Assembly (NCBI GenBank): GCA_965218095.1 | Contig: OZ244587.1 | Location: 256,001-320,000, forward strand | Reading direction: 5' to 3' | DNA length: 64,000 nt | Source: Candidatus Poribacteria bacterium | GTDB taxonomy: Bacteria > Poribacteria > WGA-4E > PCPOR2b | Part shown: positions 10,247-15,700 of the stretch, one piece after another | How the letters are laid out: each line of letters opens with the position of its first letter | How positions within the stretch are numbered: position 1 is the stretch's first letter | Translations under genes and position numbers: made by a program | The notes under the pieces: generated by a model | Databases searched by the model: none | Told to the model about the DNA's origin: nothing | Seen by the model: the letters and a program-made list of their open reading frames with translations, nothing else

Positions 10247-10855
10247 GTGCGAAAACCATTGACGAAAAAACAGGAACGGATATTTGAATTCGTTCGGAAT
10301 CATTTGCAAGATACAGGCTATCCGCCAACCGTCCGTGAAATCGGGACATCGTTCGGAATTTCTGAGAAGGGCGCCCATGATCACCTGAATGCGATTGAAA
10401 AGAAAGGCTACATACGGCGCAGCCCCAAAAAACCGCGCGCCATCGAAATCTTGGAATTTGTGCCGAAAAAGCTGCCGCAAGCAGCAATTGAGGTGCCAAT
10501 CGTTGGACGAGTTGCCGCCGGTGAACCCCTATTGGCTTCCCAGAATATTGAGGGAACTTTACCCCTTCCGCGGGAGGTCGTCAAGGACGATACCTGTTTT
10601 GCTTTGCGTATCAAAGGGGAAAGTATGATTGAAGCGGGCATCTTTGAGCGCGATCTCGTAATCGTGAGATTACAAAATTACGCGGATGCCGGAGATATTG
10701 TTGTCGCGTTGCTCGGTGAGGAGGCAACGGTGAAGCGATTCTTCCGTGATGGTACGAAGATTCGCCTTCAACCTGAAAACGGCGCTATGTCTCCGATGAT
10801 TGTCGATGATGCGCAGATTTTGGGAAAGGTTGTTGGGCTTTTCCGCAAGATGTAG
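10247..10855 (+). CDS. lexA: LexA repressor
   Basis: GYPPTVREIG, VGRVAAGEP cleavage site, GESM (Ser), ATVKR (Lys). Confidence 0.96.
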   Translation: MRKPLTKKQERIFEFVRNHLQDTGYPPTVREIGTSFGISEKGAHDHLNAIEKKGYIRRSPKKPRAIEILEFVPKKLPQAAIEVPIVGRVAAGEPLLASQNIEGTLPLPREVVKDDTCFALRIKGESMIEAGIFERDLVIVRLQNYADAGDIVVALLGEEATVKRFFRDGTKIRLQPENGAMSPMIVDDAQILGKVVGLFRKM

Positions 10856-10981
10856 GCACTGGAGCTCACTTCAATTTCTTGCTTATACCCGTTCTAAATT
10901 CAAATCGCGCATTCAAATGTCCCTCTGTGCCCCGCCGATAAATCTATGAGAAATCTGTTTTCAAGCAGCCTTTTGCACTAG

Positions 10982-11420
10982 CGGAGGGAGATCCTTCGGG
11001 CTTTTCGGGAAGTCCAACACACGACGACATCAGCCGTTACGCTTGAGGGGATAGAATCTGGGACAATTCGGATCCGGTTTGACAAGCGATTATCGAAAGC
11101 AGGTCTTGCAACGGATGAGAGAATAATTGTCAATCGAACGATGAATTTAGATGACATTCTTGCAACGATTGTCCATGAAGGGCGTCATCGTTTGGATCTG
11201 GCATCCGGCTTGATTCCACTGGCAAGTCAAGTGACGACTGAACAACGACCATGCTGCTGAATTTGCAAAGCTCAATAGCTTGACAAGGTCTGCTGCATTT
11301 GTTCATTCGCAGATGCATCCCGCCTAGTTGCTGGAGAGTCTCATTCAAACATCTTCTTATGGCTTTGGGCAGATTTCTGATGATGTATTCAGCCGGGTTC
11401 TCAAGGGGGTATGGAAATGA
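10982..11420 (+). pseudogene. HExxH metallopeptidase (polymorphic-toxin-like) C-terminal remnant
   Basis: My translation from 10982: ...ERIIVNRTMNLDDILATIVHEGRHRLDL (HEGRH 11174-11188); after a frameshift ends ...VLKGVWK* with ATGA overlap on the next gene. Confidence 0.5.
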
Positions 11421-12639
11421 GAGCTAAGTATATAAAGGTGGCGAATGTGGCATTCGGTAAGGGGGATTTGGTCGTTCAACAGGAAGATTTTGTTGGAACA
11501 GATGCCTACGAGGATGGAAACGTTCCGGAGCCGGCGTATGAGCGATTCCTTAAATACTGCGACGAAAAAGGAGAAACTTTATGTGCGTTTCTGTGTAACA
11601 AGATGTAATGGGGGTTAGAATCCCCTAACGATAACTTGCAATTGTTAGCCTTACCTTAACTGCTTTGCTTGAAAAGGCAAAGTGGGAAGCAAAGGAAAAC
11701 GGCAAATGCCCGCGAGAGAATGTAGACCCTCAGACGGCATGTCAGGCTAAGAACGTCATGGCTAAAACGAAAGTTGAACTGATGTAAGCCTCGTTACTCC
11801 TGATTAGGTGAATCTACAAGAGGGAAACTGGAGTAGTCCCTTATAAACAGCCTGTAGACAAAATGTCAAAGTGCTTTGGACAACATGTATAAGTTATGTT
11901 GTCAATAGAAGGTATAGTATATTTTTATACCTTCACGCAAGTCATACAGCATCGGGGTAAAGTCAGAGCCTAAAACGTTCACGACGTACATCTTGTGAGA
12001 ACAGGAAAGTCCCTAAGTTTCTCACTGAGAAATATGGGAGAGGAGATTCGTTATACTTTATAAGTAAAGCCGAATCAGAGTCATGGCTTTTGAAGGATTC
12101 TGAAATAGGTTTACCACTACGGAGATAATCAGGGACTGCAAACCTGTCCACCGAGCGGATTAGACATCTCGTCTAAGAATCTATAGGAATCTTGATAAGG
12201 CGGTTGAAAATGATGATAATAACCTGTAAGGAAAGTCAAAAGGCAACTCAGCCTATCGTAACTTTTGAACCCTCAAACCTTTCATAGTTAGTCATCATTT
12301 ATGACTGGGCAAGCCGTGTGCGGTGAAAGTCGCACGCACGGTTTTGATGGGAGGAAAATTCCGCAAGGAATCTACCTATCCATACTAGAGGGACTGAAGA
12401 ACCTCAAGCGATTGGCAGATTACCTGAATTTGGATCTGACAGCGCAAGTTGCCCAACGTCCCGGCGATTATGCTATTCTGTTCTGTTTTCGTCTTATCTG
12501 TGCTCAGACTATGGGATTTGCTTGGAGAACCACACACCTCGCCTTGAGAAGGGTACACTCCGCTGCCTTATTTTTGCTGCTAGCCTTGAAACGGTGCAAC
12601 CACCGCTTTGGGATGTCAGGTGGCAATTGGTTGACATGA
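11417..12639 (+). CDS. Hypothetical (immunity-like) protein split by a group II intron; exons 11417-11582 and 12386-12639
   Basis: Joined exons total 420 nt (139 aa) and read ...YCDEKGETL-L-EGLKNLKRLADYLNLDL...; 3' end of exon 2 uncertain. Confidence 0.6.
11583..12385 (+). ncRNA. ORF-less group II intron (IIB-like), 803 nt
   Basis: 5' GTGCG; 34-nt domain V AAGCCGTGTGCGGTGAAAGTCGCACGCACGGTTT (12311-12344) with AGC triad, GAAA loop, AC bulge; domain VI with bulged A12378 eight nt from a terminal AC; short domain IV closed by AAATGATGA/TCATCATTT; no RT ORF. Confidence 0.9.
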
Positions 12640-12724
12640 GCTACCATAAAAAAAGAATCCGTCCCCTCCAGAAAAAGTGAAGGGGTTGAAACGGGCGGGG
12701 AAGTTAGGACATAGAAACGCACAA

Positions 12725-15700
12725 ATGGAAACGCCAGAAAAGTTGAGATTTTGCCGTATTATCTTTCTCACCCTTTCTACATTTCTCCGGTCTTCGACCG
12801 AGAGTCCGAAACCTTCCCTCCTTCCATTCTTGCTTTCTTTCCTCCTTTCCTTCTTCATTCCCACTTTGCTTGATGCTTTACCTGAGTTCTGGACGGCGGA
12901 ACACCGCTATCTCTTGGTTCCGCTCAATCAAATGCGCCGGCAATCTGTGCAAGGGGCTCGGAGATTTTCGTTGCCTGGAGCGATAACCGACTGGGCAGGT
13001 GGGAAATCTTCTTTCGATATAGCCCTGATGGTGGGCTGACGTGGCAGCCGGAAGAACGTGTCACAACGACTCGCACGGATTCCGTCCAACCGGCGATTGC
13101 CTGCGATCAGGAGCAGATCCATCTTGTGTGGCAGAGCCTGCCCCGAGCTATCGGGGAACGCAGCGCAACGCAAACGCAAATCGGCTACAGTTCCTGGGAG
13201 GGCGTGGCTTGGAGCCCAACCCAGATTTTATCGCAACGGGGTATCTCCACCCGTCGCCCGAAGATTGCAACGACAAAGATCTTTCCCGGCGGGTTGGTTT
13301 ACGTTGTCTGGGAAGGTCAGCCGGACAATGGGCCGGGAGTAACAGCCTATCTCACACGCAACAGCGATGGCGGCCGAACATGTTCAAACCCACAGCCGAT
13401 TGTGTCGGAGGACTGGGATACGCGCGAACCGGATATCACGGGCGGGGTTCGCGCCGCTTATGTCACATGGCAGGACGGACGAGAGGCGACTTCGCAGATC
13501 TATGTCAAACGTTGGGATGAAGTGACGGTCAGCGCGGATTTTCGCCTTGCAGCAGTCGGGAATTGTCGGCGCCCATCGATTGCTGTTTTAGAGCCACAAG
13601 TATTCATGGCGTGGGAATGCAGCCTGAGTGAAACCGCGCCGGTGAACATCTTCGCGTCGGAAAGCAGGAATCGGGCGGAAACGTGGGGCCCCGCTGAACA
13701 AATTTCGTTTAATACAGCGGAATCAATCGTGCCACAAATCCTTGTGCATCGAGATGATGCGTGGGTACTCTGGCAGGACGGGGAGTCTGGCGTCCGGGAG
13801 GTTCACTTCGCACAACACCTGCAAAGCGCCTGGACACCCATAGCGCAATTCACTGTCGACGGAAGCCGACAATCCCATCCACCTAGTTTGGGTAGAGCTC
13901 ACAGATACAGCGCAATCAACCATATTTTATACCCAACGTGATACAATACCTCCCGGACGTCCCGCTCAATCGGTCCATCTTGACTTTGACTTATCTTCTG
14001 GCTTTGACAACGATTCACGTCTTACCTTCTCCTGGGAAGCCTCTACAATCCTCCCCTCTCCGTTTCAGGGAGTGGCCGGGGGAGAGGTCCGGTACCATGT
14101 TTTTGCGTCGATCGATGGCGGCGCGTTGACCGAAATTGGTTCGACGAATGACACGACCTTTACGTTCAACAGTGAGGATAACAAATCTTATCGCGTCGTG
14201 ATTCAAGCCGCTGATTCAGTCGGCAACCGGAGTGAATTCTCTAAACCGTCGGCGCCCGTATTCGTTGATCGGTCACCGCTAGACCTCGAAATTCATCTTC
14301 CTACCTCAAACATCGTAATCACGCGTCCCATTCCTGTGATCGCGACCTGTCTTGATACCAATCTGGTTGAATGCCGCCTTCAGTTTGGAGCAACGCGCAC
14401 ACTGAGCACTTGGACGTTGCTGGGCGAACCCATCCGTATTCCATTTCAAAGGGAATGTCTAATCGTGTGGAATACTAGCAACCTGGATGGCATTTATACG
14501 CTCGCGCTGACCGCAATTGATGAGGCTGGCAATCGTGTGACAACGCAAACGCCGCTCGTTATCGATAACACGCCGCCATTATCGATTGCGGGTGGGATGC
14601 AGACATCACTTCTGACCGATGAAAACCTGGAGGTTTCTTTCCGCACTCCTGTCTGGTCGCCCGATGGGGGTAAGATCGCTTTTTCCAGTAATGAAGGGGG
14701 CGCTAAAGACATCTGGTTACTAGAGCTTCCGTGACAATACACGCCATCGCCTCACCCACGACGCCGCAATCGACTTGAATCCCGCGTGGCATCCAGATTC
14801 GGATCGGCTTGCCTTTCAATCACAACGAAACGGTCGGTGGGAGATTTGGACTGTCCGATCTGATGGCAGTGATCACCACCCCTTGATTACCGTGGACAAC
14901 ACCGACAATCGTCCATCCGCGAATATCAATTTCGAGACGCCCACATGGTCACCTACAGGAGTGCAACTCGCCTTCGCCGCAGACCTTGATGGAGATTTGG
15001 AGATCTGGGCGGTGCAGAATGCTGATGATGTTTTGTCCGGCACAGTTTCCGATCTCTTCCAATTGACCCGAAACACCGCTCAAGACCTCCACCCAACATG
15101 GGCGCCTGATGGAACACAGTTAGTGTTTCAATCAGTCCGCACGGGAAATTGGGAGCTCTGGCAAATTAACATTGACGGTTCGGATGAAAAACGGGTATAT
15201 CAGAACTTCGCCAACGAAACGCTTCCGCGGTGGTCTCCCAATGGGAAGTTGCTGCTCTTTCTCTCCGATCAGTTGGGGCGCACGCCAGCCGCCTTCATTA
15301 TCAACCTGCGGGATGGAAGCCTCCCAACTCAGATTTCCCCAATCGGCGTTCCGACTGATAGTGTTGATTGGTCCCCCGATGGACGGGAAATCATCTATCA
15401 ATCCGGCGATCGGTTGCATCGGCTGCCGCTCGAATTTCCTGCGCCGCCGATTGAGGCGATGATTACCCATCCTTATACAGGCGAGCAATTGAGCGGCAGA
15501 GTCGATCTCTTTGGACTTGCTCGTGGCACACTGTTTCAGGAATACCGCTTAGAGTATGCGTCAGTTTATGCGGGCGAGGCAAGCATCGCCCCGCCGACGT
15601 AGCATCGGATTGGTGGGCGATAACCACCCCGGTAACGCAGATTGAAAATCCCGATTTTATTGGGAAGGGTTTTCTCGGACGGTGGGATACACAGCAGTTG

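Follow-up and report, generated by a model that had tools for sequence, protein, structure and literature searches.

The question raised by this locus is whether a group II intron without an open reading frame (ORF), lodged in a protein-coding gene of a Candidatus Poribacteria genome, controls that gene through its splicing or is a resident of a gene which has itself begun to decay. The intron occupies positions 11583-12385 (+ strand, 803 nt) of the window, by which we mean the whole 64-kb stretch of DNA analysed (G000:C1:256001-320000), taken from a genome assembled as one contig of 6.35 Mb; its G+C content is 42%, compared with 50% for the genome. A first-pass annotation had described an ORF-less intron whose precise excision restores the frame of a putative immunity gene, and had offered either control of that gene by self-splicing or trans-maturase-dependent splicing, or a non-autonomous mobile ribozyme. 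Our own reading, to which a probability of roughly 0.75 is attached, is that this would be an orphan gene in decay, in which a non-autonomous ORF-less intron of the IIB type is resident, rather than a gene controlled by splicing.

The ribozyme and the gene it interrupts

The intron begins with GTGCG (RNA GUGCG) at 11583 and ends with AC at 12384-12385, the consensus for group II termini being GUGYG at the 5' end and AY at the 3' end. Rfam family RF00029, which describes domains V and VI, aligns to 12309-12385 over its full model (1-77) with 65 bits (E 1.6e-10; gathering score 40), and is the sole Rfam family above threshold in the window; in this alignment the branch A is A12378, unpaired in domain VI and 8 nt from the 3' end. 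The GUGCG start, the canonical domain V and the branch A at -8 reported in the first-pass annotation were thus all recovered, as was the lack of a reverse transcriptase (RT): the intron contains no frame of at least 100 aa from stop to stop, the longest on the + strand being 55 and 50 aa. None of the Rfam models for domains D1-D4 reaches its threshold, the top match being D1D4-7 at 11627-11769 (26.8 bits, gathering score 34).

The fold of the remaining domains was derived from a consensus of 14 aligned ORF-less members, five from this genome and nine from relatives, picked from 30 full-length copies (11 from this genome and 19 fetched from relatives). This consensus comprises 197 pairs, of which the 142 in domains I-III, V and VI of the window intron are termed the core; the pairs of domain IV lie outside it, as that domain fails to align across sub-families. 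Both sides have changed in 83 of the 142 core pairs and 1904 of 1980 cells are paired (96%), whereas sliding the 3' partners by 1-2 columns as a control gave 18-28 compensatory pairs and 731-815 paired cells (37-42%). The window intron forms 133 of the core pairs, within a family range of 126-142, and the alpha and alpha' strands covary among the aligned copies (ACUUGC/GCAAGU versus GCUUAC/GUAAGC). Domain I, whose completeness the first-pass annotation had wished to see checked by covariance models and folding, forms 90 of its 98 consensus pairs, and RF00029 is matched end to end. Judged by these alignments and predicted folds, the ribozyme core of the window intron is preserved as well as in its relatives, and the element at 11583-12385 is a group II intron of the IIB type, structurally complete and without an ORF.

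The interrupted gene has only two homologues, both of them metagenomic hypothetical proteins: P0003 (169 aa), found by a full HMMER search with exon 1, and P0004 (193 aa, 69% identical), found by a search with P0003. Residues 1-88 of P0003 run gap-free across the in-silico junction (11417..11582/12386..12483) with 52% identity, and because of this precise excision would rejoin an authentic frame, as claimed; the homologue, continuous across the junction, joins the two exons exactly there. The intron is in phase 1, within codon 56 counted from the ATG at 11417, where T11582 and TA12386-87 together make TTA (Leu); the unspliced frame stops at 11606-11608, in agreement with the stop previously placed at 11608. 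Once joined, the frame has 139 codons from ATG 11417 to the stop at 12637-12639, or 141 from ATG 11411. Of this open frame of 139 aa, the junction and the openness stand, but its last ~52 residues are not authentic, being out of frame relative to the homologues on account of a 5-bp tandem duplication 92 nt downstream of the intron. Residues 84-163 of P0003 are found instead in a different frame at 12474-12668 (46% identity), and ~15 residues are missing with respect to P0003 and P0004. Colinearity therefore extends across the junction, but the spliced frame is not intact to its natural stop. As the duplication shifts the frame, the conserved C-terminal half would be lost even from spliced mRNA; the host gene is probably dead, to judge from its sequence, and a frame so disrupted probably offers nothing more to regulate.

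The coding signal of the two exons is in keeping with this picture. Exon 1 has a codon-usage score of 0.246 (real genes 0.217 +/- 0.074), and the two open frames of exon 2 score 0.027 and -0.040, below the 5th percentile of real genes (0.091), a score made ambiguous by the frameshift. Openness of the frame was set aside as weak evidence, two of the three + frames being open for more than 80 codons past the junction. A profile built from P0003 and P0004 recovers three pieces of the gene here; searched against the 175 other genomes of the phylum, it gave no match. No paralogue of the host gene was found in this genome, word-based searches with the exons returned either the genome's own ORF or nothing, and DNA of an intron-less allele was absent from a scan of genome contigs and represented in a metagenome scan by one spurious locus (L051).

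That a functional immunity gene is here controlled by a self-splicing or maturase-dependent intron is, in our view, very unlikely. The restoration of a homologous frame upon excision, the gene-like codon usage of exon 1, the intact ribozyme core and the coverage of the intron by contigs from RNA libraries would all be expected of such a gene; against them stand the frameshift at 12478-12487, which leaves the conserved C-terminal half untranslated, the loss of the ~15 conserved residues, the want of an intact maturase, and an upstream 'metallopeptidase' which amounts to a 92-aa fragment scoring below threshold. Nor does the protein have a family, fold or name which might sustain a role in immunity, and that part of the annotation falls away: there is no Pfam family for either exon or the host protein, no usable match for the protein in the Atlas, and no fold match when its AlphaFold model (pLDDT 64.7) was compared with the PDB using Foldseek (best E 0.23).

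Evidence from RNA was drawn from four metatranscriptome runs of one study, labelled sponge metagenome, in which 62-68% of the sampled words were present, and assembled contigs rather than reads were compared with window 10800-13200. Contigs follow the window with no differences at 11578-11765, 11736-12019 and 12365-12570; over 11990-12328 there are two differences. The 5-bp duplication is reproduced without gap or difference by contigs 12365-12570 and 12358-12663, and for this reason is not an assembly slip. No contig covers the part of exon 1 at 11448-11528 or spans the 5' splice site with an overlap of at least 31 letters, and the 3' splice site is crossed by contigs 12312-12770 and 12312-12545, with five differences, both of which start in the repeated domain V; depth over domain V is a pile-up of all copies, and contig depth gives no ranking of intron relative to exons. 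The pile-up, together with the 38 matches of the element in the genome by BLAST, might invite the view that a repeated element or a frameshift has been misassembled into the locus. This is hardly credible, as no other copy is more than 86% identical to the window copy, the independent RNA contigs follow the window sequence, duplication included, and in six more runs 74-96% of the words sampled from 11300-12700 were recovered.

Table 1. Positions of the exons, intron domains and recognition elements in the window. Borders of domains I to IV are predictions. EBS, exon-binding site; IBS, intron-binding site; IEP, intron-encoded protein.
Feature	Position	Strand	Basis or remark
5' exon, 55 codons and first base of codon 56	11417..11582	+	HMMER: P0003 residues 1-53, E 7.7e-8; tblastn 53% identity
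IBS2 AGGAG, exon -14..-10	11569..11573	+	Shine-Dalgarno-like, within host ORF; complement of EBS2 loop
IBS1, last 6 nt of 5' exon	11577..11582	+	5/6 pairs with H1 loop positions 3-8
Domain I (predicted), intron 1-428	11583..12010	+	98 consensus pairs, 59 compensatory; 90/98 formed here
alpha ACUUGC	11634..11639	+	pairs with alpha' GCAAGU 11937-11942
EBS2 CUCCU, intron 215-219, hairpin loop of domain Id	11797..11801	+	5/5 pairs with IBS2
Hairpin H1, 9-nt loop at 11887-11895	11879..11903	+	EBS1 = AUAAGU 11889-11894
Hairpin H2, second EBS1-type stem-loop	11908..11934	+	non-complementary to window exon; EBS1 in c468, c1598, c5526, c5863
GUAAAGU, coordination-loop segment	11957..11963	+	A11960 = EBS3, pairs with T12386 (IBS3)
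Domain II (predicted short hairpin)	12011..12038	+	10/10 consensus pairs, 6 compensatory in family
Domain III (predicted)	12045..12076	+	6/6 consensus pairs, 5 compensatory
Domain IV (predicted), ~227 nt, no ORF, IEP remnant ~12188-12223	12079..12305	+	minimum-free-energy fold
Domain V, 34 nt, AGC triad, 2-nt bulge, GAAA loop	12311..12344	+	RF00029 alignment; 14/14 consensus pairs
Domain VI and 3' end, bulged A 12378	12347..12385	+	RF00029 alignment; 13/13 consensus pairs
3' exon, frame continuous with 5' exon, T12386 = IBS3	12386..12483	+	P0003 residues 56-88; profile A1 positions 64-101
5-bp tandem duplication CTGTT CTGTT, frameshifting	12478..12487	+	P0003 84-163 resumes in other frame from 12474
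Host C-terminal part, out of frame, stop 12678-12680	12488..12680	+	46% identity to P0003 84-163; A1 113-175, E 1.2e-18

Exon recognition and the remnant in domain IV

The means by which the intron would recognise its exons were worked out by comparison with its copies in this genome (c598 and others) and in relatives. The EBS2 loop is complementary, over a run of at least 5, to the copy's own exon in 25 of 28 copies, the remaining three being unparsed by the pattern; among 16 representatives of distinct targets the complement is found in 14 of the copies' own exons, as against 49 of 210 pairings with the exons of other copies. In the family EBS1 is formed by positions 3-8 of a 9-nt loop (Y-U-N6-U) lying just 5' of alpha', and in the first hairpin, H1, these positions are complementary to all of the last six exon bases in c598, c707, c2598 and L068; L068 belongs to a relative of a different genus, whose target is nearly identical to that of the window intron and is matched perfectly by this loop over 8 bp. 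The pairing in the window intron extends to five of the six positions, including one G-U, with a mismatch at exon -6; c4703 and L067 likewise pair at five of six.

A different EBS1 had been proposed earlier, the GTAAAGT at ~11957-11963, which is present and complementary to the exon end ACTTTAT as stated. However, this segment belongs to a motif, GGGGUAnAGUCAG (GGGGUAnAGU), which is constant in copies with unrelated exons, and as EBS1 it was rejected in favour of 11889-11894; by this comparison the complementarity to ACTTTAT is coincidental. In 21 of 28 copies the variable base n of the motif forms a pair, of the A-U, U-A, C-G or G-U type, with +1 of the 3' exon (four copies show no pair and three were unparsed), and for this reason GUAAAGU is taken to hold EBS3 (its third A, A11960), a feature of IIB introns. 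As expected of the IIB class, EBS3 lies in the domain Id coordination loop and an IBS2 is present just upstream of IBS1. Exon recognition would proceed in the standard IIB way, EBS2 pairing with IBS2, EBS1 with the last six exon bases and EBS3 (A11960) with T12386, while A12378 would serve as the branch point.

The presence of two neighbouring hairpins of the EBS1 type, which share the 9-nt loop format, is an observation in its own right. Eleven members have them, namely the window intron (11879-11934), c468, c598, c707, c1598, c2598, c5526, c5863, L067, L068 and L073. The guide bases are perfect in the first hairpin in four copies and in the second in four others, never in both; c2598 and c5526, which are sister copies, do not use the same one. 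Two relatives, G017 and G022, were searched for two-hairpin copies that are almost identical yet stand at different sites, but their 19 further loci proved to be single-hairpin introns or members of other sub-families. A narrow literature search found no account of duplicated or alternative EBS1 elements, which does not imply that none has been published.

Domain IV had been thought to be reduced to about 90 nt; it is predicted here to be considerably longer, at ~227 nt (intron ~497-723), with a closing helix which in a single-sequence fold pairs intron ~497-503 with ~717-723. Relatives containing an ORF align with the window intron up to intron position 535 and resume from position 709 (c1598) or 710 (c598). 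Between these points, intron 608-637 has 87% identity to the part of c598 which encodes residues ~66-77 of the frame of the intron-encoded protein (IEP), and tblastn with the family IEP against the window intron gave only a 12-residue (E 0.014) and a 17-residue (E 0.19) match. Domain IV, on the strength of these alignments, retains a decayed remnant of the N-terminal coding region of the IEP. Because of this remnant, and of flanks which align with ORF-containing relatives, the window intron would be a deletion derivative of an ORF-containing ancestor, from which it may have arisen through the loss of ~1.6 kb of domain IV.

A multi-copy family and its single maturase gene

Besides the 38 BLAST matches, the genome holds 23 matches to RF00029, and when 5' matches were paired with 3' matches 11 full-length copies were obtained, so that the search for sister copies advised in the first-pass annotation yields at least 11 together with 23 domain V/VI matches. 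Five of these copies are ORF-less and 715-803 nt long (the window intron, c468, c2598, c4426 and c4703), and the remaining six are longer, at 1.5-2.5 kb. Identity to the window intron is ~69-86%, no other copy exceeding 86%; for c598 it is 73-95% in the alignable RNA parts. A multi-copy family and a decayed IEP remnant in domain IV are what would be expected of a non-autonomous mobile ribozyme, and it is this suggestion of the annotation that fits best with our data.

The nearest relatives of the window intron, at 76-86% identity, are c707, c5863, c4389 and f4272, and all four are interrupted by unrelated repeats of ~0.85-0.95 kb which are present in dozens of copies; this fits an old, dying sub-family. 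The interrupting repeats (G000:C1:708070-709010, 5863905-5864862, 4273119-4274068 and 4389855-4390700) stand at different intron positions and are of two types, one of ~940 nt with 36-37 matches in the genome and one of ~850 nt with 158; no convincing ORF was seen in them.

The maturase domain PF08388 (GIIM) is matched once in the genome, inside c598 (G000:C1:598220-600671). The IEP gene of c598, as assembled, has its RT domain split over two frames together with an in-frame TGA, and a C-terminal frame of 374 aa carries RVT_1, GIIM and HNH. Amongst solved structures this IEP is closest to 6ME0 (TeI4h, E 2.5e-57), the next group II RTs reaching 1e-13 at best, which points to the CL/IIB1 lineage for the protein sequence of this relative. 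The only other RT in the genome, of 507 aa (G000:C1:1094736-1096260; L075:737-2260), belongs to the DRT4 defence family (PADLOC E 2.9e-161). The search for a cognate RT, as advised, therefore did lead to a related IEP gene, but not to an intact one, and the genome, if the assembly is correct, would be without an intact maturase. Splicing dependent on a maturase in trans becomes doubtful, the single maturase gene being broken by a stop and a frameshift as assembled. As there is no intact maturase in the assembly, present splicing, if any, would be self-catalysed or host-assisted and probably inefficient, and the mobility of the intron has probably been lost.

A more extreme position would be that no splicing takes place in vivo at all, the intron and gene being inert leftovers of a past burst of mobility. 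The diverged and repeat-interrupted state of the four nearest relatives, the EBS1 pairing of only five in six, the broken state of the sole IEP gene and the frameshift in the host gene, which leaves nothing to select for splicing, are all compatible with a dead relic. We nevertheless regard it as rather unlikely, as the consensus pairs have been kept throughout (domain V 14/14, domain VI 13/13, domain II 10/10, domain III 6/6, domain I 90/98), an EBS1 pairing of 5/6 is within the range of working relatives (c4703 and L067), and C.te.I1, as described in a review, self-splices although its genome lacks any IEP (PMC4424553).

The preferred reading, of a decaying gene with a resident non-autonomous intron, should itself be considered with caution, and several points weigh against it. 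The core is as well kept as in the relatives, and the window intron may still splice well. No 11582>12386 joint is present in the contigs of the four runs, where exon depth is 0-4 and too thin to judge splicing. The host frameshift could be recent or strain-specific, having been seen in RNA-library contigs of one study. There is the possibility of an intact IEP on an unassembled replicon, the genome being 93.9% complete by markers, and the defects in the maturase gene are known only from the assembly. The placement in CL/IIB1 comes from the protein of c598 and not from the window intron, while the borders of domains II to IV are predictions, the family alignment being unreliable for domain IV of the window intron.

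Relatives in the same bacterial family carry many further copies. In 29 genomes of this family (G000-G024 and G064-G067) there are ~150 RF00029 matches versus 15 matches to PF08388; in G014, G024 and G001 the maturase domain is encoded by open frames of 583-598 aa. One of them, G023, assembled as one contig and 97% complete, has eight domain V/VI matches and no maturase hit, and contains six near-identical ORF-less introns of 742 nt at a common target, AACCYAAGTTGCTAG; in genus g5 no intron was found in any of four genomes. An ORF-less copy at a target ending in AAGTGCG before the insertion point and continuing as TAA.TCCTAA beyond it is present in three genomes of two genera (G000:C1:4426125-4426839, L070 in G014 and L072 in G018), which suggests either that the insertion is old and has been passed down vertically or that the homing site is conserved. 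G022 (L076-L082) has another ORF-less sub-family, of ~694 nt and starting with GTATGC or GTGTGC and not GTGCG, for which the target GGTTACGGCATACGGA followed by TACT is common to at least six insertion places.

Shine-Dalgarno-like IBS2 sequences (AAGGAG, AAGGA or GGAGG) are seen in seven of the 11 copies in this genome, at G000:C1 copies 468785, 598220, 1598536, 2598356, 5526113 and 5863431 and at window 11569-11573, and also at L071. Several of these copies are placed at start codons: c598 and c5863 split the ATG after its A, L071 lies just after an ATG, and c1598 stands exactly between the Shine-Dalgarno sequence and the ATG of a Gfo/Idh/MocA-like oxidoreductase frame. The frames downstream of the start-codon copies are short (17-73 aa), that of the oxidoreductase shifting after 17 codons. 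No targeting of start codons or Shine-Dalgarno sequences by group II introns was described in the parts of the literature covered by a narrow search.

Comparison with known ORF-less introns and the setting of the locus

Thermosynechococcus elongatus has 17 ORF-less and eight ORF-containing closely related IIB1 introns (PMC2882425), with copies that are 85-100% identical and with eight of 25 intact introns keeping the IEP (Mohr et al., 2010, PMC2882425). The family described here resembles its TeI3/TeI4 introns (IIB1/CL) in being multi-copy within one genome, in that ORF-less members arise from ORF-containing ones by deletion in domain IV, and in the divergence of its copies into sub-families with different EBS/IBS; the IEP of c598 is also closest to the TeI4h protein among solved structures. 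It differs from that of T. elongatus in that its copies are only ~69-86% identical to the window intron, its single IEP gene is broken as assembled, many of its members have two tandem EBS1-type hairpins, and its host is, by the label of the runs, a sponge-associated bacterium.

In the dnaN gene of Trichodesmium four ORF-less introns are serviced by the RT of another, related intron (PMC12584367). Like those of Trichodesmium erythraeum, the window intron is ORF-less and interrupts a protein-coding frame; however, dnaN is an essential housekeeping gene which must be spliced, whereas the host here is a frameshifted orphan which gives no sign of selection for splicing. Service in trans of the kind described for Trichodesmium and T. 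elongatus would call for an intact related IEP gene, and there is none in the genome as assembled. Group II introns that lack an ORF are reported to be rare in bacteria and nearly always accompanied by related IEP-encoding introns, the lone exception being C.te.I1 of Clostridium tetani, which self-splices in vitro and whose genome has no IEP gene (PMC4424553). The window intron is like C.te.I1 in being an ORF-less bacterial intron in a genome without a usable maturase, at least as assembled, and unlike it in its company: C.te.I1 is a lone intron, while the genome here has 23 domain V/VI matches and the window intron no fewer than 10 full-length relatives; self-splicing is known for C.te.I1.

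Several characters are also shared with the mobile CL (IIB1) introns EcI5 and TeI4h: the 5' GUGCG and 34-nt domain V, recognition through IBS2-IBS1-IBS3 with EBS3 in the coordination loop, and, in c598, an IEP of the family that combines an RT, a maturase and an HNH endonuclease domain. The window intron differs from these in having no IEP, and its place in this class would be a tentative one. The window intron belongs to a known kind, the IIB1/CL-like ORF-less introns, and its context sets it apart, because of the many diverged copies, the one broken IEP gene, the tandem EBS1-type hairpins and the Shine-Dalgarno-like IBS2 sites.

By itself the locus is nothing unusual, since it consists of a non-autonomous group II intron within a gene already in decay. 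Less ordinary is the context: the genome has 23 domain V/VI matches and a single IEP gene, which is broken, and its relatives have ~10 domain V/VI matches per maturase domain. It is conceivable, if distinctly improbable, that this family of sponge associates maintains a large and diversified population of ORF-less IIB1-type introns which persist or spread with little or no cognate maturase, that either of the tandem EBS1 hairpins can define the 5' exon, and that Shine-Dalgarno-like IBS2 sites put many of the introns at translation starts, where splicing would gate translation, the window intron being a decayed witness of this. If true, persistence with so little maturase would imply host-assisted or unusually efficient self-splicing. 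The lineage is a candidate natural system for the persistence, retargeting and splicing of ORF-less introns in bacteria, and the EBS/IBS map makes tests of splicing and retrohoming straightforward.

The surroundings of the host gene are peculiar to this genome. Upstream of it, window 10982-11260 holds a 92-aa stop-to-stop frame with an HExxH-like motif; its assignment to DUF6782, a putative metallopeptidase family, was rejected because the scores, 21.9 and 18.9 bits, fall short of the cut-off of 27, and the frame is probably a gene fragment. The host gene itself is found in an islet of ~1.2 kb between lexA and a conserved downstream gene, in this genome only. None of the five relatives fetched has the stretch 10856-12868, and in them lexA is followed by the next conserved gene at a spacing of 135-373 nt, compared with 2014 nt here.

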